DNA from: a virus
Lineage: Duplodnaviria; Heunggongvirae; Uroviricota; Caudoviricetes
IMG/VR virus record: IMGVR_UViG_647533160_000003
Direction: 5' to 3' (one strand)
Length of the DNA stretch: 64,000 bases
A program made the position numbers and the translations under genes. Shown one piece after another: positions 4,012 through 49,016 of the stretch; positions within the stretch are counted from its first letter, which is position 1, and each line of letters starts with the position of its first letter. The notes beneath the pieces are model-generated. The model had not been told where the DNA came from. It saw only the letters and a list, made by a program, of their open reading frames with translations, and ran no database searches.

Positions 4012-7000
4012 ATGACCCAAGTCGCGAAGAAAATTCTGGTGACGTGCGCGCTGCCGTACGCTAACGGCTCAATCCACCTCGGCCATATGCTGGAGCACAT
4101 CCAGGCTGATGTCTGGGTTCGTTACCAGCGAATGCGCGGCCACGAGGTTAATTTCATCTGTGCCGACGATGCCCACGGTACGCCGATCATGCTGAAAGCA
4201 CAGCAGCTTGGTATCACACCGGAGCAGATGATTGGCGAAATGAGTCAGGAACACCAGACTGATTTCGCAGGCTTTAACATCAGCTATGACAACTATCACT
4301 CGACGCACAGCGAAGAGAACCGCCAGCTGTCTGAGCTTATCTATACTCGCCTGAAAGAGAACGGTTTTATTAAAAACCGCACCATCTCTCAGCTGTACGA
4401 TCCGGAAAAAGGCATGTTCCTGCCGGATCGTTTTGTAAAAGGCACCTGCCCGAAATGTAAAGCACCTGATCAATATGGCGATAACTGTGAAGTCTGCGGC
4501 GCAACATATAGCCCGACTGAATTGATCGAACCGAAATCGGTGGTTTCTGGCGCTACGCCGGTAATGCGTGATTCTGAACACTTCTTCTTTGATCTGCCCT
4601 CTTTCAGCGAAATGTTGCAGGCATGGACCCGCAGCGGCGCGTTGCAGGAGCAGGTGGCAAACAAAATGCAGGAGTGGTTTGAATCTGGTCTGCAACAGTG
4701 GGATATCTCCCGCGACGCACCTTACTTCGGTTTTGAAATTCCGAACGCGCCGGGTAAATATTTCTACGTCTGGCTGGACGCACCGATTGGCTATATGGGC
4801 TCTTTCAAGAATCTGTGTGATAAGCGCGGCGACAGCGTAAGCTTCGATGAATACTGGAAGAAAGATTCCACCGCCGAGCTGTATCACTTCATCGGTAAAG
4901 ATATCGTTTACTTCCACAGCCTGTTCTGGCCAGCAATGCTGGAAGGCAGCAACTTCCGCAAGCCGACCAACCTGTTTGTTCACGGCTATGTGACAGTGAA
5001 CGGCGCGAAGATGTCCAAGTCTCGCGGCACCTTTATTAAAGCCAGCACCTGGCTGAATCATTTTGACGCCGACAGCCTGCGCTACTACTACACCGCCAAA
5101 CTGTCTTCGCGCATTGATGATATCGATCTCAACCTGGAGGATTTCGTTCAGCGCGTGAATGCCGATATTGTTAACAAAGTGGTTAACCTGGCCTCCCGTA
5201 ATGCAGGCTTTATCAACAAGCGTTTTGACGGCGTGCTGGCAAGCGAACTGGCTGACCCGCAACTGTACAAAACCTTTACTGATGCCGCTGAAGTGATTGG
5301 CGAAGCATGGGAAAGCCGCGAATTTGGTAAAGCTATCCGTGAAATCATGGCATTGGCTGACCTGGCTAACCGCTATGTCGATGAACAGGCTCCGTGGGTG
5401 GTGGCGAAGCAGGAAGGTCGCGATGCAGATCTGCAGGCGATTTGCTCTATGGGCATTAACCTGTTCCGCGTGCTGATGACGTACCTGAAACCGGTACTGC
5501 CAAAACTGACTGAACGTGCAGAGGCATTCCTCAATACGGAACTGACCTGGGATGGTATCCAGCAACCGCTGTTGGGCCATAAAGTGAATCCGTTCAAAGC
5601 TCTGTATAACCGTATCGATATGAAGCAGGTTGAAGCACTGGTGGAAGCGTCTAAAGAAGAAGTCAAAGCCGCTGCCGCACCGGTAACTGGCCCGCTGGCA
5701 GACGATCCGATTCAGGAAACCATCACCTTTGACGACTTCGCCAAAGTTGACCTGCGCGTGGCACTGATTGAAAACGCGGAGTTTGTCGAAGGNNNNNNNN
5801 NNNNNNNNNNNNNNNNNNNNNNNNNNNNNNNNNNNNNNNNNNNNNNNNNNNNNNNNNNNNNNNNNNNNNNNNNNNNNNNNNNNNNNNNNNNNNNNNNNNN
5901 NNNNNNNNNNNNNNNNNNNNNNNNNNNNNNNNNNNNNNNNNNNNNNNNNNNNNNNNNNNNNNNNNNNNNNNNNNNNNNNNNNNNNNNNNNNNNNNNNNNN
6001 NNNNNNNNNNNNNNNNNNNNNNNNNNNNNNNNNNNNNNNNNNNNNNNNNNNNNNNNNNNNNNNNNNNNNNNNNNNNNNNNNNNNNNNNNNNNNNNNNNNN
6101 NNNNNNNNNNNNNNNNNNNNNNNNNNNNNNNNNNNNNNNNNNNNNNNNNNNNNNNNNNNNNNNNNNNNNNNNNNNNNNNNNNNNNNNNNNNNNNNNNNNN
6201 NNNNNNNNNNNNNNNNNNNNNNNNNNNNNNNNNNNNNNNNNNNNNNNNNNNNNNNNNNNNNNNNNNNNNNNNNNNNNNNNNNNNNNNNNNNNNNNNNNNN
6301 NNNNNNNNNNNNNNNNNNNNNNNNNNNNNNNNNNNNNNNNNNNNNNNNNNNNNNNNNNNNNNNNNNNNNNNNNNNNNNNNNNNNNNNNNNNNNNNNNNNN
6401 NNNNNNNNNNNNNNNNNNNNNNNNNNNNNNNNNNNNNNNNNNNNNNNNNNNNNNNNNNNNNNNNNNNNNNNNNNNNNNNNNNNNNNNNNNNNNNNNNNNN
6501 NNNNNNNNNNNNNNNNNNNNNNNNNNNNNNNNNNNNNNNNNNNNNNNNNNNNNNNNNNNNNNNNNNNNNNNNNNNNNNNNNNNNNNNNNNNNNNNNNNNN
6601 NNNNNNNNNNNNNNNNNNNNNNNNNNNNNNNNNNNNNNNNNNNNNNNNNNNNNNNNNNNNNNNNNNNNNNNNNNNNNNNNNNNNNNNNNNNNNNNNNNNN
6701 NNNGCTGTTGGGCCATAAAAGTGAATCCGTTCAAAGCTCTGTATAACCGTATCGATATGAAGCAGGTTGAAGCACTGGTGGAAGCGTCTAAAGAAGAAGT
6801 CAAAGCCGCTGCCGCACCGGTAACTGGCCCGCTGGCAGACGATCCGATTCAGGAAACCATCACCTTTGACGACTTCGCCAAAGTTGACCTGCGCGTGGCA
6901 CTGATTGAAAACGCGGAGTTTGTCGAAGGTTCTGACAAACTGCTGCGCCTGACACTGGATCTCGGCGGAGAAAAACGTAATGTCTTCTCAGGCATTCGTT

Positions 7001-7229: not shown

Positions 7230-7266
7230 ATATAGACACAATCCCTCCTGATTTACACAAGCCCTA

Positions 7267-7279
7267 AAACAATTTGTTT
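7267..7279. promoter_or_regulatory. 13-bp palindrome AAACAA-N-TTGTTT (site 1)
   Basis: aaacaatttgttt. Confidence 0.6.
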
Positions 7280-7317
7280 TCTACCTTTTGTTGATTGAGA
7301 TAATAAGCCACATAAGA

Positions 7318-7330
7318 AAACAAATTGTTT
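7318..7330. promoter_or_regulatory. 13-bp palindrome AAACAA-N-TTGTTT (site 2), 14 nt upstream of ATG 7344, preceded by GATAAT
   Basis: aaacaaattgttt. Confidence 0.6.
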
Positions 7331-7343
7331 CGGAGTGGTTGAA

Positions 7344-9055: not shown

Positions 9056-9387
9056 CCGGTATAGCGTGAGGGAGAGTTGCGGCTACCCACCTGTAATGTG
9101 CGGGAAGAAGAGAGGTGCTCACGTGCAGGCGGACTTACTTACCGCTGGATTCCCTCTGAATGCCCAGCTACAGCGTAATTGTGCCAGATAGCCAGCGGGT
9201 CACAATCGATTTCAGTAGGTTTTCGGGGAGAGGATTATTCTGCACACCAGCCACTTTCGGCCACTAAATCAGAATAATGTAAAAAGTGTACTCGGTACTG
9301 AACCTGAAAACTCACTGCTAAAACCACATTCACCGGAATAAAATCCTTTTTCGCTTATGTGTTATTACGATAATAACACCAATAAGA

Positions 9388-9400
9388 AAACATGTTGTTT
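9388..9400. promoter_or_regulatory. 13-bp palindrome family (site 3)
   Basis: aaacatgttgttt; preceded by cgataataacaccaataag. Confidence 0.55.
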
Positions 9401-9412
9401 AAGGATTGCTTT

Positions 9413-9732: not shown

Positions 9733-9861
9733 CCTCAACCAAAGCCAGCAATGCTGGCTTAACTTCTCTGTGGCCGCAGGGAAGAACCTGCATATCGCTC
9801 ATGCGCCTGATCAATATGCTTTGTAGCCGTTTTCTTACTGCTATTATTTACGCCATTGAGA

Positions 9862-9874
9862 AAACAAGTTGTTT
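9862..9874. promoter_or_regulatory. 13-bp palindrome family (site 4)
   Basis: aaacaagttgttt. Confidence 0.6.
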
Positions 9875-9885
9875 ACGGAGTTGTG

Positions 9886-10719: not shown

Positions 10720-10814
10720 TCCTCTTTGAATGGCGCGTAAACCGCGCCATTTCCTATGCCCGATAACAATTTGTTTTCTGCCTTTATCTCGCTGCGATAA
10801 TTACACCAACAAGA

Positions 10815-10827
10815 AAACAACATGTTT
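10815..10827. promoter_or_regulatory. 13-bp palindrome family (site 5)
   Basis: aaacaacatgttt; preceded by cgataattacaccaacaag. Confidence 0.55.
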
Positions 10828-10840
10828 ACGCAGTGAGGAT

Positions 10841-11128: not shown

Positions 11129-11299
11129 AGAATAAGGTCACCAATGCTGGTGGCCTTAAATGACCATCCTGTTTCCCTCAGGCTAAAAACACCAACCTCT
11201 TACCTCCAGGCAACCGACAAACCCACCTGTTCCCGTCCGGCCACCGCAACTTTCCACTTTGACGCCTTATTCGTACAACGATAATTAACACCAACAAGA

Positions 11300-11312
11300 A
11301 AACAATTTGTTA
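11300..11312. promoter_or_regulatory. 13-bp palindrome family (site 6)
   Basis: aaacaatttgtta; preceded by cgataattaacaccaacaag. Confidence 0.55.
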
Positions 11313-11332
11313 TTTACGATAAGGAATTAATC

Positions 11333-12109: not shown

Positions 12110-12429
12110 ACGCGCACATAATACGCGAGCGGATACGGAACAAAACAAAATGCCGATCCGCGCCGACAAATAAACGCGGATCACATAGCAAGACTAAAAG
12201 CCAATGATTAACTATGCGCTATAGCGCAATATAACGCGTTTTAAGCGCGTTAATGCGTTAAGTAATGGGTATGTACTGGCAAGGATATAAAAGCGCGTCT
12301 ATGGCGTTATTTTGGCGCTTATTGTTATGTTGTTGGAGTGAGTTAAAGACAATAAAAAACGCGCCAATGATGGCGCGTTATGGTGGAAGTATTGGAAACG
12401 AAAAAAGCGCCCATAGTGGGCGCTCGATT

Positions 12430-12681: not shown

Positions 12682-12930
12682 TTAAATAGAATTTTGAAGT
12701 TTTCCGATTAATGCGCTTAAACGTAAGTATTCACGTTTGCGCTTGCAATCTCGCTTGCTGTTAAGCAAATCAGAAAACGTAAAATTTAATTGGTCGCGTT
12801 GCGCGATCAAATCATCGATTAATTCCAGTTTATAAGCGCGATACTTTGCGCGATATTCTGCGCGGATCTTGTCATAGCTGACCATCTTTAAAGCTCCTTT
12901 AAAGCGCCCACTATGGGCGCTTAATTCCAT
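12682..12930 (-). CDS. Hypothetical small protein (82 aa), basic, possibly nucleic-acid binding
   Basis: Minus-strand ORF; Lys/Arg-rich; flanked by repeated hairpins. Confidence 0.4.
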   Translation of the reverse strand: MELSAHSGRFKGALKMVSYDKIRAEYRAKYRAYKLELIDDLIAQRDQLNFTFSDLLNSKRDCKRKREYLRLSALIGKLQNSI

Positions 12931-21110: not shown

Positions 21111-21377
21111 ATGACGTTAACCGACAAACAAAAGGACATCATCAAAACGCTCAATCTCGGTTATGAGCGAGGTCATCTACTTGATCTGGACGAATTGCTT
21201 GAAGTTTTGCCGTACAAGACAACCAAGCAAAGTATCCAGTTCTCAATTCGCGCTCTGATAAAAAAGGGGCTGGTGGAGAAAGGGCATACGCGCCAACGCA
21301 GTGACAATCGCTATCACCGCCGAACTCTTGGGTTAACCACTTTAGGTCGAGCCAAAGCGAAGTTACTGGTGATGTAA
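21111..21377 (+). CDS. Small basic protein, possible winged-helix regulator
   Basis: 88-aa ORF; followed by long palindromic element 21401-21457. Confidence 0.4.
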   Translation: MTLTDKQKDIIKTLNLGYERGHLLDLDELLEVLPYKTTKQSIQFSIRALIKKGLVEKGHTRQRSDNRYHRRTLGLTTLGRAKAKLLVM

Positions 21378-21400
21378 TCGGTCTGGGAGCTTATTTAAAG

Positions 21401-21457
21401 ACCTGCTTCTGTATATATAAATAATAAGTAACTTATTAAATATATACGGAAGCAGGC
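21401..21457. repeat. Long palindromic hairpin element, copy 1 (acctgcttctgtatata...tatacggaagcagg)
   Basis: ~17-bp stem with AT-rich ~25-nt loop; near-identical copy at 55339-55393. Confidence 0.8.
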
Positions 21458-21495
21458 TTAATAAGACATGCCCAGACCTAATTAAACACCCCAGA

Positions 21496-21533
21496 AAACA
21501 AATTGGTTAGCATATGCAGTAAACAAGTTGTTT
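21496..21533. promoter_or_regulatory. Two 13-bp palindrome-family sites (7, 8) upstream of terminase small subunit gene
   Basis: aaacaaattggtt and aaacaagttgttt. Confidence 0.55.
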
Positions 21534-21573
21534 TAGAGCGCATGGACGCGCTCTGTGTGTTTTAGAGGGATCT

Positions 21574-22206
21574 ATGACGGTCGAAAAAGACGAGGTAAAA
21601 ACTCGCCTGACACCAGCGGAGTGGGCCGAAGCTGAAGCCAAATGGACGTCAGGCGAATATACACTCTCAAAGCTGGAGGAAGAGTACGGCATTCGTCGTG
21701 AAACACTCTCCAGACATTTCAAAAAGCGAGGATTAGAGAAAGGCGCGGACTCTGTTGGGAAGATGGTTCGTGAGTCTCTTAAATCTGACGCAGAGCTTCG
21801 CGCTAAAGCCCGTGCGGAAAAGATAGAAGAACGTCGTACACGTTATGACGGCTGGGCGTATGCGTTGGGGCAGATGGTGATGGTCGAAGTCACTACGGCC
21901 AAACGTGAGGGTAAGCCTTTAGGGGCGATTGAGGATTCTCTCAAGAGCTTACAGAGAGCCAGTAATACCCTTGCAAAATGCTTTGAAGTTTCGTCCAAAG
22001 CATTGGGCATGGATCATGCGGAAAATGACGAGGAAGAAATTCCGAACCTGGTATTTGGTGAGCTTACGCCTTCCCAGGTGGCGAAATTACGTCAGGAAGA
22101 CGACGAGCCTGAAATCATCGATGACGAATTGCTTGAGACGTTGGAAGAAGAAGCTCTAAGCGAATTTGGTGCGACAGATGATGGAAGTGAAGGGGAGGAC
22201 GAATAA
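21574..22206 (+). CDS. Terminase small subunit (putative)
   Basis: Position immediately upstream of large terminase; basic N-terminal region, highly acidic C-terminus. Confidence 0.6.
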   Translation: MTVEKDEVKTRLTPAEWAEAEAKWTSGEYTLSKLEEEYGIRRETLSRHFKKRGLEKGADSVGKMVRESLKSDAELRAKARAEKIEERRTRYDGWAYALGQMVMVEVTTAKREGKPLGAIEDSLKSLQRASNTLAKCFEVSSKALGMDHAENDEEEIPNLVFGELTPSQVAKLRQEDDEPEIIDDELLETLEEEALSEFGATDDGSEGEDE

Positions 22207-23462
22207 TGGCAATCCCGTCCTCGCTCAGTCTTGTGCAACTGCATTCTGGACAGATGAAAGTCTTCCAGTCTCCGCATCGATTTAAAGTTGTTTGTGCTGG
22301 TCGACGCTGGGGAAAATCCCGGTTGTCGATCTCCACTATTATTCGTGCGGCGGCAAAGGAAAAAAAGCAAAGAGTCTGGTATGTCGCTCCTACTTACCAG
22401 ATGGCTCGCCAGATTTTGTGGGACGATCTACAGGAAGTTCTGCCTCGTAAGTGGGTTAGGAAAAAGAACGACACCACGATGACAATCGTGTTGAAGAACG
22501 GTTCGGAGATCGCCCTCAAAGGTGCTGATAAGCCTGACACTCTGCGCGGCGTAGCGTTGCATTTTGTAGTGCTTGATGAATTTCAGGATATGAAGGCTGA
22601 CACCTGGTACAAGGTGTTACGACCTACTCTTTCATCGACACGCGGCGGTGCACTGATCATTGGTACGCCAAAAGGCTTCTCGGAATTTCACAAACTGTGG
22701 ACTATAGGCCAGAACGTAGAGCTGCAAAGAAAGGGACAGTGGAAGAGCTGGCAGTTTGTAACTGCTGATTCGCCGTTTGTGCCTACGGCGGAAATTGAAG
22801 CTGCTAAGAACGATATGGACCCTAAATCGTTTGCTCAGGAGTACCTGGCCAGCTTTGAAAATATGTCCGGGCGCGTTTACTACCCGTTCGATCGAAACGT
22901 GCATGTTAAACCGCTTCAGTTCAACCCTCGGTTGCCTATATGGGTAGGACAGGACTTCAACATTGACCCGATGTCTTCCGTAATTTTGCAACCTCAGCCA
23001 AATGGTGAGCTATGGGCAATTGATGAATTGGTGCTCTTTTCCTCTAACACGGCAGAGGTTTGTGATGAGCTTGAGAGGCGCTTCTGGCGCTGGAAATCAC
23101 AGATAACGGTATTTCCAGATCCGGCAGGTGCTTATCGCCAACATGCTCGCGGGGAGTCTGACGTAGACATATTCAAAGAGAAGGGATTCTTACGTGTCGA
23201 TTATTCGAAAAAGCACCCGCCAATTGCGGATCGTGTTAATGCTGTTAACCGAATGCTGATGACCGCATCTGGAGATATCCGGCTGTATATCGATCCGAAG
23301 TGCAAGCATTTGATTGATTCACTGGAAAAGGTCATCTACAAGCCTGGAACACGAGATATGGATAAGACAGGTGGCATTGAGCATAGTGCAGACGCATTGG
23401 GCTATCCAGTACATCGTAGGTATCCAGTCAAAAACCGTGTTATTCTTGGTGGTTCTCGATAG
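22206..23462 (+). CDS. Terminase large subunit
   Basis: Walker A 'CAGRRWGKSRL', Walker B 'HFVVLDEFQDM', C-terminal nuclease-like region; overlaps upstream stop. Confidence 0.85.
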   Translation: MAIPSSLSLVQLHSGQMKVFQSPHRFKVVCAGRRWGKSRLSISTIIRAAAKEKKQRVWYVAPTYQMARQILWDDLQEVLPRKWVRKKNDTTMTIVLKNGSEIALKGADKPDTLRGVALHFVVLDEFQDMKADTWYKVLRPTLSSTRGGALIIGTPKGFSEFHKLWTIGQNVELQRKGQWKSWQFVTADSPFVPTAEIEAAKNDMDPKSFAQEYLASFENMSGRVYYPFDRNVHVKPLQFNPRLPIWVGQDFNIDPMSSVILQPQPNGELWAIDELVLFSSNTAEVCDELERRFWRWKSQITVFPDPAGAYRQHARGESDVDIFKEKGFLRVDYSKKHPPIADRVNAVNRMLMTASGDIRLYIDPKCKHLIDSLEKVIYKPGTRDMDKTGGIEHSADALGYPVHRRYPVKNRVILGGSR

Positions 23463-43935: not shown

Positions 43936-46900
43936 ATGTGGTACAGGGAAGGTACTATCACATTTACACAGGGTAGTAATACTCTGGTTGGGGTTGGGAC
44001 AGCCTGGAACGTAACAGCTAATGGTGTGTTGCCGGGGATGATCGTCATTGGCCCCGACAATAAGCTGTATGAGATCAAGCGCGTAACAAGCGATACGAAC
44101 ATTGTTCTCTCAGAACCTTATACCGGTGAAACTCAGTCTGAAGTTCCGTGCCGAATCATTACTACCTATGAAGGCGACTTAACACAGTTTAGCGCGCGCT
44201 TTACCGCGCTAATGTCGCGTATGTCGGCTGATTCCAAGTCCATGCGTAGTTGGTTGACTGCTCTGGATGAGGTGACAATCGAGCGTGAAGACGGTACAGA
44301 AGTGACCGTTAAGCCGCTGATGCAGATCGTCAACGAGCACAACGAAAACGTTGAGTGGTATAAAAATAACACTGACGCGATTGATGCCGCTGGTGACAAA
44401 GCTCGTGAGGCGGCGGCCAGTGCTGCCGCAGCAGCAGAAAGCGCCAATACCGCTGGAGAAAAAGCATCTCAAGCGTCTCAAAGTGCATCCGCTGCGGCAT
44501 CCTCACAAAGTGCCGCAAGTGCGAGTGCAACTGCTGCGAAAAAATCTGAAACGAACGCAGAATCAGCATATCTAGCGGCAGCAGAATCAGCGTCTGTAGC
44601 GTCGACCAAAGCATCGGAGGCAGCAACATCTGCGTCCAGTGCCTCTGCATCTAAGGATGCAGCCAAAGCATCAGAGACTAACGCTTCATCGAGTGCAAAC
44701 GCGGCTGCATCATTTGCAACAGAAGCTGAAAATTCGTCTAAGGCAGCAAAAGCGTCAGAGACAAACGCAAAAGCATCTGAAACGGCAGCCGGGCAGAGTG
44801 CATCGTCTGCAAACAGTTCGAAATCTGCGGCAGAAGCGTCAGCAAGCGCAGCCTCAGCAAGTGCGGATAGAGCTTCATCAAGTGCAACTGCGGCAGGAAA
44901 ATCTGCGGAAAGCGCGTCGTCGTCAGCGACAACAGCTACCGCAAAAGCGACTGAGGCGACGAATCAGGCTACAGCCGCTAAAAATTCAGCATCGGCAGCA
45001 AAATCCTCTGAAACAAATGCAAAGGCTTCTGAAGATAATGCCGCTTCCTCTAAAGAGGCAGCTGCTGAATCTGCAAGTTCTGCGTCTGCATCAGCCACCT
45101 CGGCATCCGCTTCAAAAGATGAGGCGACCAAGCAGGCATCAGCTGCGAAGGGGAGTGCTTCAACGGCATCCACGAAAGCAACAGAGGCGGCAGGCAGTGC
45201 GACGGCTGCATCTCAGAGCAAAGCTGCTGCTGAATCCGCTGCGACCCGTGCAGAAGCTGCCGCTGATCGTGCTGAAGAGATTGCCGGTGCCGTTGCGATG
45301 GAAGACGCAAGCCTTACCACCAAAGGTGTTGTGAAACTTAGCAGTGCTGTCGACAGCACCAGTGAATCGCTGGCCGCAACGCCAAAAGCAGTTAAAGCAG
45401 CCAATGACAATGCGAATAGCAGGGTGCCATCTAACCGAAAAGTTAACGGTAAAGCACTGACTGCGGATATCACATTAACGCCGAAAGATATTGGTACTTT
45501 AAATTCAGTAACGATGTCTTTCTCTGGCGGGGCTGGGTGGTTCAAACTGGCTACGGTTACCATGCCACAAGCGAGTTCCATCGTTTACATCGCATTGATT
45601 GGTGGCGCTGGTTACAACGTCGGCTCCCCACATCAGGCAGGCATTTCAGAACTGGTTCTACGAGCAGGCAATGGAAACCCCAAAGGGATTACCGGTGCTT
45701 TGTGGAAGCGGACAGCCGTCGGATTAACGAATTTCGCCTGGATCAACACATCCGGCGATACATATGATATTTACGTTGAGATTGGCAATTATGCGACTAG
45801 TGTAAATATCCATTGGGATTGTACTGCAAATGCGACAGTTTCTATTTATACATCGCCAACATATTCAGCGAGTAAGCCTTCCAGCGTTACCGATGGTGTT
45901 GTTTATACGATGTATAGCACACATCAGAAACCGACGCCGTTAGATATTGGAGCACTGCCAACAACCGGAGGAACAGTTTCAGGTCCGTTGTCTGTTACTG
46001 GTGGGATCACCGGAACATTAAATGGTAATGCAAGTACAGCAACGAAATTGCAGACGGCAAGATCTATCGGTGGAGTTGGTTTCGACGGTTCTGCAAATAT
46101 CAACCTTCCAGGTGTAAATACTACGGGTAATCAGAACACCACTGGTAATGCTGCAACTGCTACAAAACTTCAGACGGCAAGAACTATCGGCGGCGTGAGC
46201 TTTGATGGTACTGCGAATATTAATTTGCCAGGTGTTAATACGACTGGTAATCAGAATACAACGGGCAACGCGGCTACTGCTACGAAGTTGCAGACTGCAC
46301 GTACTATCAATGGGGTGTCGTTTGACGGCTCGGCAAATATTTCCTTGTCGCCAGCAAATATAGGTTGCCCGGCATCTCCTACTGGTTGGTTAACTACAGG
46401 AAGTAATGGCGGAGCAATAACAACAGCACAGTTAGTGACGTTATTGCAAAATAATGGAGCATTTAACACAAAGTCATGGATTGCTCGATGTGCGTGGGCC
46501 TATGCCAATAGTGCAACCATACCAAACAGTGAAACTGGTTGTGGCGTTATTCCATTGGCAGGAGCTGTTATAGAGGTATTTAATAACGGTAGTAGCTCAA
46601 ACAATTATACGATCCGTATAACAACGGCCACAACGACGAGTGTCTCTGGTGCTCTCACTAATGCGGAGTTTATCTATGTATTTAATGGCACAGATTATTC
46701 TCCGGGATGGCGAAGAGTATATAACACGAAAAACAAACCAACAGCCTCTGATGTCGGTGCATTACCTCTTACCGGTGGTACATTATCTGGAGGTTTGACA
46801 TCTTCTGGCGAGATCATTTCAAAATATGCAAATGGTTTCCGCATTGCTTACGGTAGCTTTGGGTTCTTTATCCGTAATGATGGATCGAACACATATTTCA

Positions 46901-48093
46901 TGCTAACAGCATCAGGAGACACATTAGGTTCATGGAACGGTTTGCGACCTATTACAATTAATAATACCAGCGGTGCGGTATCAATTGGTAATGGACTAAA
47001 TGTGACTGGTGGCGTAAATGGTAGTTTGAACGGTAATGCTTCAACAGCTACGAAGTTGCAAACAGCGAGAAACATCAATGGTGTTAAGTTTGATGGCTCA
47101 GGCGATATCAACATTAATACACTGGTATCTCGTGGCCGAGTTACGGCATTAAGCGGCTCTACTCAAGGCACTGCTGGCATTCAAATGTACGAGGCGTACA
47201 ACAATAGCTACCCGACCACGTATGGCAACGTATTGCACATGAAAGGTGCGAGTGCTGCTGGTGAGGGCGAGTTGCTTATTGGCTGGAGTGGTACGAGCGG
47301 TGCACATGCGCCAGTTTTCATTCGCTCACGAAGAGATACCACAGATGCGGCATGGTCAGCGTGGGCGCAGCTATATACTGCTAAGGATTCAATCCCTGGT
47401 GTGAATACAACCGGTAATCAGAATACTACTGGTAATGCCGCAACAGCCACAAAATTGCAGACAGCAAGGAAAATTGCTGGTGTGGCGTTTGATGGCTCTG
47501 CCGATATTACTTTGACTGCGGCTAACCTTAATGCTTATACGAAAACAGAGGTAACAAACCTTCTAAGTTCCTATGCAAGCAGATCATCACTGACAGGCTA
47601 TAGTGGCAACCTGGATATTATTGCTGAAACACTGGTTGTCAAATCAGGCGGTAGTGGAGGGTTTGCTATATGGGATATTGGCACAACTACTAGCGGTGCC
47701 AATATGTACATTGATCCAAACCCTGGTATCAATACAGTTTGGCGTTCAACATCTTCAAGGCGCTATAAAAAGGATATTGAAACATTACAAGATCGATATG
47801 CTGATGAACTTTTGTCATTAAGACCTGTTTGGTATCGTTCAATTTGTCGAGGTGACCGAAAGGATTGGGGGTATTACGGCCTTATTGCTGAAGAGGTTGG
47901 TGAGATTGCCCCGCAATATGTCCATTGGCGTGAACCAACAAATAATGATTCTCCAGAAGATATTTCCTCAAATGGTATGGTCGCTGAAGGGGTGATGTAT
48001 GAGCGTTTGGTTGTACCACTCATTCATCATATTCAGCAATTGACCAAAAGGGTTGAGGAGCTTGAAACGAAGTTAAATTCACCTAAAGAATAA
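43936..48093 (+). CDS. Tail fibre protein with Ala/Ser-rich repeats, ~40-aa fibre repeats and C-terminal intramolecular-chaperone (peptidase S74-like) domain
   Basis: N-terminal 'SASxAAxxSExNA' repeats; repeated 'GNAATATKLQTAR.I.GV.FDGSANI'; C-terminal 'YKKDIETLQDRYADELLSLRPVWYRS...GLIAEEVGEIAPQYV' typical of autocleaving fibre chaperone domains. Confidence 0.85.
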   Translation: MWYREGTITFTQGSNTLVGVGTAWNVTANGVLPGMIVIGPDNKLYEIKRVTSDTNIVLSEPYTGETQSEVPCRIITTYEGDLTQFSARFTALMSRMSADSKSMRSWLTALDEVTIEREDGTEVTVKPLMQIVNEHNENVEWYKNNTDAIDAAGDKAREAAASAAAAAESANTAGEKASQASQSASAAASSQSAASASATAAKKSETNAESAYLAAAESASVASTKASEAATSASSASASKDAAKASETNASSSANAAASFATEAENSSKAAKASETNAKASETAAGQSASSANSSKSAAEASASAASASADRASSSATAAGKSAESASSSATTATAKATEATNQATAAKNSASAAKSSETNAKASEDNAASSKEAAAESASSASASATSASASKDEATKQASAAKGSASTASTKATEAAGSATAASQSKAAAESAATRAEAAADRAEEIAGAVAMEDASLTTKGVVKLSSAVDSTSESLAATPKAVKAANDNANSRVPSNRKVNGKALTADITLTPKDIGTLNSVTMSFSGGAGWFKLATVTMPQASSIVYIALIGGAGYNVGSPHQAGISELVLRAGNGNPKGITGALWKRTAVGLTNFAWINTSGDTYDIYVEIGNYATSVNIHWDCTANATVSIYTSPTYSASKPSSVTDGVVYTMYSTHQKPTPLDIGALPTTGGTVSGPLSVTGGITGTLNGNASTATKLQTARSIGGVGFDGSANINLPGVNTTGNQNTTGNAATATKLQTARTIGGVSFDGTANINLPGVNTTGNQNTTGNAATATKLQTARTINGVSFDGSANISLSPANIGCPASPTGWLTTGSNGGAITTAQLVTLLQNNGAFNTKSWIARCAWAYANSATIPNSETGCGVIPLAGAVIEVFNNGSSSNNYTIRITTATTTSVSGALTNAEFIYVFNGTDYSPGWRRVYNTKNKPTASDVGALPLTGGTLSGGLTSSGEIISKYANGFRIAYGSFGFFIRNDGSNTYFMLTASGDTLGSWNGLRPITINNTSGAVSIGNGLNVTGGVNGSLNGNASTATKLQTARNINGVKFDGSGDININTLVSRGRVTALSGSTQGTAGIQMYEAYNNSYPTTYGNVLHMKGASAAGEGELLIGWSGTSGAHAPVFIRSRRDTTDAAWSAWAQLYTAKDSIPGVNTTGNQNTTGNAATATKLQTARKIAGVAFDGSADITLTAANLNAYTKTEVTNLLSSYASRSSLTGYSGNLDIIAETLVVKSGGSGGFAIWDIGTTTSGANMYIDPNPGINTVWRSTSSRRYKKDIETLQDRYADELLSLRPVWYRSICRGDRKDWGYYGLIAEEVGEIAPQYVHWREPTNNDSPEDISSNGMVAEGVMYERLVVPLIHHIQQLTKRVEELETKLNSPKE
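46023..46346 (+). repeat. Three tandem ~120-bp repeats inside tail fibre gene (further diverged copies near 47020 and 47400)
   Basis: Direct repetition of ggtaatgc..acagcaacgaaattgcagacggcaaga.. Confidence 0.8.
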
Positions 48094-48408: not shown

Positions 48409-49016
48409 TGTACGGAAGCAAGATATATCGATCTGACGGGAAGGTCTGGATGTCTCCTTCTTTGTCTCCTATCGTTTTTCAGAGAAAGCAGGTTGTTTCT
48501 TTGTCTGGCGGGACAGAGTTTAACACCCAAATATCTCCAGATCGTTCACCGATGATTTTTGTTGCCTATTCGAAAGCTGTTTCATTAATAGCCAACAGAA
48601 TAGTGCGTAACAACCAGGTGATTTACAGTTTCGGAGGTCAGGGTAGCGATTCTAGTGCCACGATATACGTATTTTCGAAAGGTATAGCCAAAAAAGAAAC
48701 TTGGGGCATGAGTTTTTTCAATGCGCGAGGAGAGGAGATCTATAATACGGCAAATATCCCACTTTCATTTACCTTTCTTAATAATACGGAGTGGAACAGT
48801 TCTGGAGGGCATGTTTTTGATTACCCGCCAGCGATAATCCCAACATATGCAAATGTGTTCGCGGTTCCAGTACCGGGCGGGGCCATGACAATGGTTTATG
48901 GATATGCGGCATATGGAAATACTGTTAGCTCGATATTCGTAAACCAACTTAATGGCGGCCATAGTTTTAGCGTAAATGGCAGAGTACCGGTAATAAATAG
49001 AAATCTGTATAACTGA
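48408..49016 (+). CDS. Hypothetical protein downstream of tail fibre
   Basis: 202-aa ORF overlapping upstream stop. Confidence 0.45.
   Translation: MYGSKIYRSDGKVWMSPSLSPIVFQRKQVVSLSGGTEFNTQISPDRSPMIFVAYSKAVSLIANRIVRNNQVIYSFGGQGSDSSATIYVFSKGIAKKETWGMSFFNARGEEIYNTANIPLSFTFLNNTEWNSSGGHVFDYPPAIIPTYANVFAVPVPGGAMTMVYGYAAYGNTVSSIFVNQLNGGHSFSVNGRVPVINRNLYN

Follow-up and report, generated by a model that had tools for sequence, protein, structure and literature searches.

What do two long palindromes do at the borders of gene blocks in a tailed phage? The DNA concerned is IMG/VR record IMGVR_UViG_647533160_000003 (Caudoviricetes; 64,000 nt, called the window here, position 1 being its first letter), and the palindromes are named P1 and P2. 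The original prediction had offered three answers: bidirectional terminators, recombination hotspots that permit modular exchange, or protein-binding sites. Our best explanation, to which we assign a probability of roughly two in three, is that both are copies of a lineage-specific hairpin that acts as a sense-strand Rho-independent terminator and insulator at three fixed positions of a phage-plasmid family. Rho-independent (intrinsic) terminators are understood here as defined in an excerpt of PMC3993855. Termination is well supported for P2; for P1 it is plausible but uncertain.

Sequence, folding and distribution of the palindromes

The inner palindrome of P1 (21402-21456, + strand) consists of CCTGCTTCTGTATA, a 27-nt AT-rich centre, and TATACGGAAGCAGG. 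P2 (55339-55392, + strand) has the same two 14-nt arms around an AT-rich centre of 26 nt. The limits predicted originally (21401-21457 and 55339-55393) were one base off, and the description of the copies as near-identical is right for the arms, which are identical, but not for the centres, which differ. The string TAAGTAAC is found on the + strand in P1 and on the - strand in P2. We drew no inference from reading the P2 centre as an inverted copy of the P1 centre: both forms occur in relatives, and direct and inverted alignments are about equally good because the centre itself is nearly palindromic. With up to two mismatches allowed, the window contains six occurrences of the arm pattern where 0.41 would be expected: the four exact arms and two degenerate matches within coding sequence. 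The latter two, half-sites at 48409 and 51580, were taken as chance, as were other arm-like matches in the window that required three errors.

The sense-strand RNA of P1 folds at -31.0 kcal/mol (z = -10.7) and that of P2 at -25.2 kcal/mol (z = -5.3), and for neither did any of 200 shuffles fold as well, so that the palindromes themselves, as predicted, exceed chance by far. Folds of the - strand are weaker (-24.9 kcal/mol for P1, -23.0 kcal/mol for P2). The stem comprises 17 consecutive pairs, in agreement with the ~17 bp first proposed, and pairing extends into the AT-rich centre. One of the 17 is a U.G wobble, located on the + strand at arm position 9 in both copies. Both sense-strand hairpins have the GC-rich base expected of a terminator. 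Immediately 3' of the P2 stem lies the T-run that had been reported after this copy, TCTTTTTCT (55393-55401, + strand), which is conserved across site-2 relatives and is the predicted 3' end of transcripts arriving from the left. An outer motif, CCCAGAC, follows further downstream of P2 (55412-55418, + strand).

P1 has no U-tract on either side. It is instead the core of an extended hairpin of 99 nt (21380-21478, + strand; -50.6 kcal/mol) that starts 3 nt past the stop of an 88-aa open reading frame (ORF) and is almost continuous, as the intervening stretches pair too. Its outer stem is formed by GGTCTGGG (21380-21387, + strand; family motif TCTGG), located just past the upstream stop codon, and CCCAGACC (21471-21478, + strand; family motif CCAGA[C]). 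The inner stem measures 17 + 7 bp and the extended structure ~41 bp, which is within the range of RNase III sites (at least ~20 bp of near-continuous double-stranded RNA). The span 21381-21478 given in the original prediction coincides with this hairpin, a structure that was left undescribed there. Rfam yielded no family match anywhere in the window, and our literature searches found no description of the element. A reading of GGTCT...AGACC around P1 as what we take to be inverse EcoP1I sites was dropped, as it fails at P2 and P3 (the copy at a third site, described below).

The window DNA is 98-99% identical to SSU5-like phage-plasmids of E. coli (CMS-2020a, PhiR41_1, and Cyrano/pLF82) and ~79% identical to Klebsiella and Salmonella members; judged by this identity, it is an E. 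coli SSU5/pHCM2/pMT1-type phage-plasmid. A 75-nt region around P1 matched 800 PLSDB plasmids from Klebsiella, Escherichia, Enterobacter, Yersinia, Salmonella and others, typically at four places per record (a palindromic site scores once per strand, so these amount to two or more sites), and it matched 12 of 12 related phage records. For the functional evidence, loci were sampled via neighbouring proteins without reference to the palindrome, and in this sampling the hairpin was present in every close relative examined. The original prediction had staked itself on conservation in related genomes, and both the ~800 plasmid records and the close relatives bear it out. The element is more conserved than its flanking sequence. 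A scan of one genome per species (185,579 species) returned seven matches, all on plasmid-like contigs of 12-109 kb (five of them on contigs of 58-109 kb), from Kluyvera, Buttiauxella, and Y. pestis, with one in a Bacillota metagenome-assembled genome bin, probably misbinned. Because the scan gave only these plasmid-like matches, the element appears private to the SSU5/pHCM2/pMT1-type family; a host repeat of the repetitive extragenic palindrome (REP) type or a widely mobile repeat is thereby ruled out.

When 124 sites were clustered by their flanks, three contexts only were obtained, with no hybrid flank combination among them. Site 1 is P1, site 2 is P2, and site 3 (P3) follows a DNA methyltransferase gene outside the window, at 78.3 kb in SSU5 and 78.1 kb in Cyrano. 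In relatives, the hairpin occupies these three orthologous positions 0-30 nt past the stop of a same-strand gene; in SSU5 and Cyrano, all three sites lie 10-30 nt after a + strand gene and before the next + strand block. Both inner palindromes of the window begin 24 nt after + strand stop codons (21377 and 55314). The palindrome is 51-57 nt long in the main family, with a centre of up to ~100 nt in other lineages, and the spacing of the arms accordingly ranges from 23-29 nt up to ~100 nt. As a helicase-anchored search gave close relatives only, site 2 of distant lineages was taken from the plasmid collection; sites of distant lineages were inspected directly and folded with ViennaRNA.

Evidence for termination of sense-strand transcription

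The features conserved at these sites have a strand. The nine nucleotides after the stem contain on average 5.5 T at site 2 and 5.4 T at site 3 on the + strand, against 4.0 and 3.0 on the opposite strand. In distant lineages, a U-tract follows site 1 too (for example, TCTTTTTAT and TCTGTTTTTTTTAG). Most changes in the arms produce pairs of the G.U type on the + strand (positions 4, 5, 8, and 9), which fill 50 cells, compared with 11 that would be G.U on the - strand. Counted as distinct site/position wobble events, the ratio is 10 to 4. Sites 1 and 2 show the bias strongly, and one lineage completes the path from C-G through U.G to U-A. Of the bidirectional terminators originally proposed, the terminator thus stands, as a one-directional signal, and the bidirectionality does not: the T-run is on the + strand only, as against 3.0-4.0 T per 9 nt on the - strand, where the wobbles turn into C.A mismatches.

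Structure is kept where sequence is not. Distant lineages carry different, compensated arms at the same places (CCTTGCTCCCATA/TATGGGAGCAAGG, GCCGTGYTCC/GGAGCACGGC, and others), and in every fold the arms close. The hairpin is also exchanged for unrelated terminators. A decayed palindrome lies beside an unrelated conventional GC hairpin with a T-run at site 3 of loci L344-351 and at site 2 of Klebsiella p2, and in relatives from Aeromonas and Acinetobacter, the site-2 position ahead of the same replication genes is taken by unrelated hairpins that look like terminators. Loci L424/425, in which the gene upstream of terS is divergent, have no hairpin at site 1, presumably because a divergent upstream gene leaves nothing to terminate. 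Taken together, these conserved sense-strand features indicate that the selected property is a hairpin ending transcription that comes from upstream.

Expression data from a relative agree with this for P2. Misson et al. (PMC9928086) re-analysed RNA-seq data from E. coli LF82, a strain that carries Cyrano as its plasmid pLF82. According to S1 Table of that study, the genes parA-CYRAN_29-CYRAN_30, located just left of the P2 orthologue, are expressed at 5.2-10.8 log2(FPKM+5) (FPKM, fragments per kilobase per million mapped reads), with CYRAN_30 alone, upstream of the P2 orthologue, at 5.7-10.4; CYRAN_31, downstream on the same strand, is at 2.3-4.2 log2(FPKM+5) in 10 of 10 samples. The drop from CYRAN_30 to CYRAN_31, at the gene level and in this relative, amounted to 3.5-7.9 log2 units in the 10 samples, or up to ~200-fold (PMC9928086); in one example, expression fell from 10.42 to 2.56, about the floor of the scale. 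The sole strong structure in the 193-bp gap between these genes is P2 with TCTTTTAAA. The gaps holding P1 and P3 in Cyrano are uninformative because expression is low on both flanks; from CYRAN_123 to CYRAN_1, it falls by 1-2 log2 units where signal is present.

A mechanism can be proposed on this basis. Nearly all genes of the replicon are co-directional, and the hairpin would be met 0-30 nt past the last stop of one block and 100-200 nt before the next. As polymerase arrives from the left, the GC-rich stem base (CCUGCUUC/GAAGCAGG) and the long AT-rich upper stem would fold; at P2, the folded stem would abut UCUUUUUCU and the transcript would be released, the exact 3' end and the efficiency of release being predictions of this model. 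P2 would thereby bar plasmid-state expression of partition and accessory genes from entering the lytic replication block, and any termination at P1 would similarly keep plasmid-state expression out of the packaging-to-lysis block. In the lineage of the window, the U-tract of P1 seems to have been lost and the 99-nt hairpin is there instead, so P1 may be a weak terminator or an RNA-processing or stabilising structure.

The genes on either side fit this arrangement, almost all those adjoining P1 and P2 being on the + strand. P1 lies between a ParB_N/ABC-ATPase block, whose last gene encodes 88 aa (phrog_900, 21111-21377, + strand) and whose transcript P1 would end, and the terS-like (21574-22206) and terL (22206-23462) genes, the first of the packaging/structural block that P1 would insulate (21574-23462, + strand); the distance to terS is ~120 nt. 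P2 lies between a parA-type operon with two accessory ORFs and a 249-aa gene (phrog_2500) followed by that of a DnaB-like helicase (55503-57636, + strand), where the conserved replication block that P2 would insulate starts. The claim that the palindromes sit at module boundaries is hence correct in the functional sense (P1 before terS/terL, P2 before the helicase/primase block), whereas a border of variable DNA is found only at P2.

Several observations weigh against a simple terminator. The first concerns P1: no U-tract follows it in the window (CTTAATAAG) or in SSU5 (TTCTGAAT), with a mean of 2.95 T in 9 nt, which makes canonical intrinsic termination at this site doubtful. The stems are far longer than those of typical terminators. 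A simple terminator scan called neither P1 nor P2, because the formal loop exceeds 8 nt. At site 3, the wobbles lack strand asymmetry (9 vs 8), and P2 of PhiR41_1 has a gene of opposite orientation directly to its left. The RNA-seq is gene-level, comes from a relative and is informative for P2 only, and termination would give the same drop as processing followed by decay. Finally, a plain terminator, which needs no arm sequence common to the three sites, accounts neither for the concerted evolution of the arms within genomes nor for the invariant outer TCTGG/CCAGA motifs.

Alternative roles and the accessory hotspot

These objections lead to the alternative that survives best, namely that the element serves RNA processing or stability instead of, or besides, termination: RNase III would cut the 40-plus-bp double-stranded RNA, or the duplex would protect the 3' end of the upstream mRNA, especially at P1. 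The near-continuous 99-nt hairpin of P1 (-50.6 kcal/mol), with no U-tract, is what this predicts; the sense-strand wobble bias suits any RNA role, and the expression drop can also stem from processing and decay. At P2 and P3, moreover, the outer right motif lies past the U-tract, so the outer stem can form only in read-through RNA. At most sites, however, that outer pairing is limited to 5 bp, and it shows no covariation; good U-tracts are present at sites 2 and 3 and, in many lineages, at site 1, and decayed copies were replaced by ordinary terminators rather than by other long duplexes. We therefore regard a processing role as unlikely for the element in general; for P1, going by its predicted fold, a role in RNase III processing or in stability has to be taken seriously.

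The arms and outer motifs raise a further possibility. Within a genome, the sites share identical arms, which differ between lineages: GGGAGCAAGG is shared by sites 1 and 3 of one genome, GGAGCACGG by both sites of another, and GGAGCCAGG by both of a third. A search for divergent arms by exact pattern found one site, while the right-arm 17-mer found two sites in that genome, its other matches being on unrelated ~42-kb contigs. Such within-genome identity is concerted evolution, by way of gene conversion or a shared trans-acting partner. As for the outer motifs, TCTGG was found 15-41 nt upstream of site 2 in 23 of 33 otherwise unrelated left flanks, and CCAGA(C) 14-30 nt downstream at all sites. 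The CCAGA-containing motif and AAACAAnTTG, both conserved after the hairpins, could be phage-specific promoter elements; a scan for sigma-70-like promoters found none next to P1 and, around P2, only weak 9-of-12 matches (three, compared with 4.3 from shuffles). The three hairpins might, instead of being independent terminators, form a coordinated insulator system whose shared sequence is recognised by an RNA- or DNA-binding factor encoded by the phage-plasmid, or by RNase III once read-through RNA has formed. Such recognition would open all three borders together at induction and switch transcription from plasmid-type to phage-type, with the repeats, as points of palindromic breakage or homology, also seeding cassette exchange at P2. 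We hold this extended scheme to be quite unlikely.

If a partner recognised DNA instead, the palindromes would be sequence-specific sites for a phage-plasmid protein, such as dispersed centromeres of the kind found in N15, operators or replication sites, with the 14-bp arms as half-sites. The lineage-specific arm sets common to the two or three sites of a genome would be explained, as would conservation of the element beyond its flanks, and candidate partners are encoded nearby (ParB_N-domain genes upstream of P1, a parA-type operon upstream of P2). The distance between the arms, on the other hand, varies from 23-29 up to ~100 nt, a range that a rigid dimer bound to duplex DNA could not accommodate. 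Strand-asymmetric wobbles (50 vs 11) are meaningless for duplex recognition, a U-tract is conserved alongside the arms, and single sites decay or vanish, or give way to unrelated terminators, while the neighbouring genes persist. The protein-binding site of the original prediction is, in view of this, very unlikely.

P2 does abut variable DNA, which bears on the proposed role in recombination. The homology of all relatives to the window starts at P2. Clustered by their right flank, the 76 loci sampled via the gene downstream of site 2 formed one group; clustered by the 400-nt left flank, they formed 14. In 73 of 75 loci, similarity to the left flank of the window stopped 1-7 nt from the palindrome. 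Within the window, the variable part is a short stretch at 53.3-55.3 kb, between the parA operon and P2. It holds a DUF2971 ORF (53318-53908) and a 398-aa phrog_8571 ORF (54118-55314), and as a whole (53318-55314, + strand) is swapped for unrelated DNA in relatives; that of Cyrano carries lysogen-expressed genes. To its left, the parA-type ATPase (222 aa) and a 119-aa partner occupy 52285-53312, and the accessory hotspot begins directly after this pair. The orthologue of the 119-aa partner is annotated in Cyrano as a RelE/ParE-like toxin, and the parA pair is expressed in the lysogen. By these alignments, the right edge of an accessory-gene hotspot is fixed at P2, and P2 marks a mosaic boundary because it is the first conserved sequence right of a fast-turning locus. 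P1 is no breakpoint among ordinary relatives.

A recombination module in the strict sense, serving mainly to let unrelated gene cassettes be exchanged at its edge (a regulatory cassette like the promoter early stem-loops discussed below, a miniature inverted-repeat transposable element (MITE)-like insertion or a site of palindrome-induced breaks), would account for these flanks, for one left-flank cluster being paired with two types of palindrome and right flank, and for contigs and the SSU5 record often breaking at the element. The family also encodes an SbcC-like nuclease subunit and a RuvC-like resolvase (64.6-67.9 kb in Cyrano, outside the window), which could bear on the tolerance or processing of long palindromes. 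Against this, variable DNA borders only one of the three sites, and neither a second copy nor a credible half-copy was found on the left side of that DNA. The sites stay at fixed, orthologous places, and in the 185,579 species genomes, neither host chromosomes nor other elements carry the palindrome; assembly breaks are expected of any 55-bp palindromic triple repeat. Junction distances vary as well, TCTGG being 15-41 nt away or absent, and there is no fixed junction nucleotide. With no hybrid flank pair in the 124 sites, both a site-specific recombination site (attC/lox/dif-like) and rearrangement between copies were rejected. Of the predicted recombination hotspot, the adjacency to variable DNA at P2 remains, and nothing shows that the palindrome drives the exchange; the retention of an essential insulator beside DNA that turns over is enough to explain the pattern. 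We give a recombination module, like a protein site, very little weight.

A packaging (pac/cos) or genome-end site, suggested by SSU5 and Cyrano records that start inside P1 (the linear SSU5 record ends ...GACTTATTA and starts AATATATACGGAAGCAGG, a cut within P1) and by the ~120 nt from P1 to terS, is scarcely credible and was rejected together with a telomere reading of the break, since the element is not a single terS-adjacent site but occurs three times per genome, twice at a great distance from terS, loci L424/425 keep terS without P1, closed circular plasmid records run through P1, and the Cyrano record, which is the sequence of plasmid pLF82, was apparently opened where SSU5 was. The break in the SSU5 record is likeliest a product of assembly or linearisation at a 55-bp palindromic triple repeat. 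Contigs of IMG/VR loci L007, L022, and L068 also end at or near the palindrome.

Neighbouring repeats, significance and known systems

Other repeats and hairpins were observed in the window. A palindromic motif, AGAAAACAAnTTGTTT, occurs at least 11 times, mostly just upstream of + strand blocks (terS, parA, helicase), at places including 7251-7334, 9364-9404, 9846-9879, 10748-10832, 11284-11317, 21480-21537, 52213-52253, and 56248-56281; it is probably a promoter or operator motif of a phage-plasmid regulator. The leader of terS (which starts at 21574) contains a GC-rich hairpin (21534-21555, GAGCGCATGGACGCGCTC then TGTGTTTTAG) between promoter-like motifs and the terS ribosome-binding site. 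Its stem covaries among lineages (GGCGC/GCGCC, GGTGCA/TGCAC, GGCGTC/GATGCC), and it may be a leader attenuator or a target of late-gene antitermination. The string TAAGTAAGTAACT (55481-55493), just upstream of the 249-aa gene, is conserved in relatives and has stops in all three frames. Together with the loop motif, it resembles what we take to be the core of the enterobacterial repetitive intergenic consensus (ERIC), AAGTAAGTGACT; as a short AT-rich three-frame-stop string, the resemblance was not used.

Elsewhere, an unrelated hairpin, AGCGCCCACTATGGGCGCT, is present twice in inverted orientation (12400-12424 and 12903-12927, ~480 nt apart), bracketing a small region, and an exact direct repeat of 212 nt is found at 5581-5792 and 6718-6929, 1137 nt apart. 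The 1385-aa ORF at 43936-48093 contains 120-nt tandem and dispersed coding repeats (GNA.TATKLQTAR.I.GV.FDGS-type, 46023-47549) typical of tail fibres; its Cyrano orthologue is annotated as a homologue of the S tail fibre of phage P1.

The significance of the element is modest, as it would be a family-specific example of an ordinary type of signal, with extra interest in its concerted evolution and composite architecture. Phage-plasmids of the SSU5/pHCM2/pMT1 type are common in clinical Enterobacteriaceae, the ~800 PLSDB records with the element among them, and the locus closed by P2 also hosts toxin-antitoxin, defence and resistance genes, for which P2 is a precise landmark. As limits of blocks, the three hairpins would offer a simple map of how the plasmid state keeps replication, packaging, and lysis genes off. 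The palindromes also account for breaks in short-read assemblies and in the SSU5 reference record, and P2 may be of use in engineering as a compact and strong natural terminator. Should a trans-acting factor lie behind the concerted evolution, it would offer a handle on the switch from plasmid to phage.

Among known systems, REP sequences and the bacterial interspersed mosaic elements (BIMEs) built from them, ERIC sequences of enterobacteria and Correia elements are repeated, sequence-conserved hairpins that double as terminators or mRNA stabilisers. Paired DNA-uptake sequences of Neisseria are likewise described, in an excerpt of PMC1852404, as repeated hairpins doubling as terminators. The present element shares with all of these a recurrent palindrome in transcribed intergenic DNA after genes, conserved beyond the needs of pairing. 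Unlike the REP, ERIC, and Correia types, it has three copies only, at fixed orthologous positions, and is private to one phage-plasmid family; unlike REP and uptake sequences, it shows no sign of mobility and has no known trans-acting factor comparable to an uptake receptor or a REP-associated tyrosine transposase (RAYT).

Promoter early stem-loops (PeSLs) of T4-type phages are composite terminator/promoter cassettes (PMC2839356, PMC4122927). They are numerous and flank variable cassettes on both sides, and recombination between them leads to insertions and deletions (PMC2839356, PMC4122927). P2 resembles them as a small repeated stem-loop regulator where a conserved core meets rapidly exchanged genes. 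It differs in number and arrangement (two copies in 64 kb, three per genome, with a single copy bounding one side of one hotspot), in that no attached sigma-70 promoter was detected in the scan, and in the lack of copy-to-copy exchange at the 124 sites.

Long intergenic hairpins tied to RNase III are known from lambda sib/tI retroregulation and from the intergenic RNase III sites of T7. As in lambda sib/tI, a terminator hairpin would here join a longer duplex upon read-through and, as in T7, long intergenic hairpins of similar sequence lie between phage gene blocks; the outer pairing of our element is nevertheless short and, at most sites, does not covary. The linear phage-plasmid N15 has dispersed, compact palindromic centromeres of the sopC type, bound by SopB. 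Its few copies of one palindrome around a phage-plasmid, some of them beside lytic blocks, are reminiscent of P1-P3, but the arms of the latter are split by a variable AT-rich centre of 23 to ~100 nt and accompanied by strand-specific wobbles and a U-tract.

Well-studied intrinsic terminators include lambda tR', T7 T-phi, and rrnB T1. Compared with these, the stem described here is 2-4 times longer and AT-rich in its upper half, three copies with the same arms evolve in concert between flanking TCTGG/CCAGA motifs, and P1 in the lineage of the window lacks a U-tract. P2 and P3 nonetheless have the hallmarks of the class: a hairpin with a GC-rich base and an immediate U-tract after the last gene of a co-directional unit, a structure kept by compensatory change and interchangeable with unrelated terminators, and, at the P2 orthologue, a drop in expression across it.

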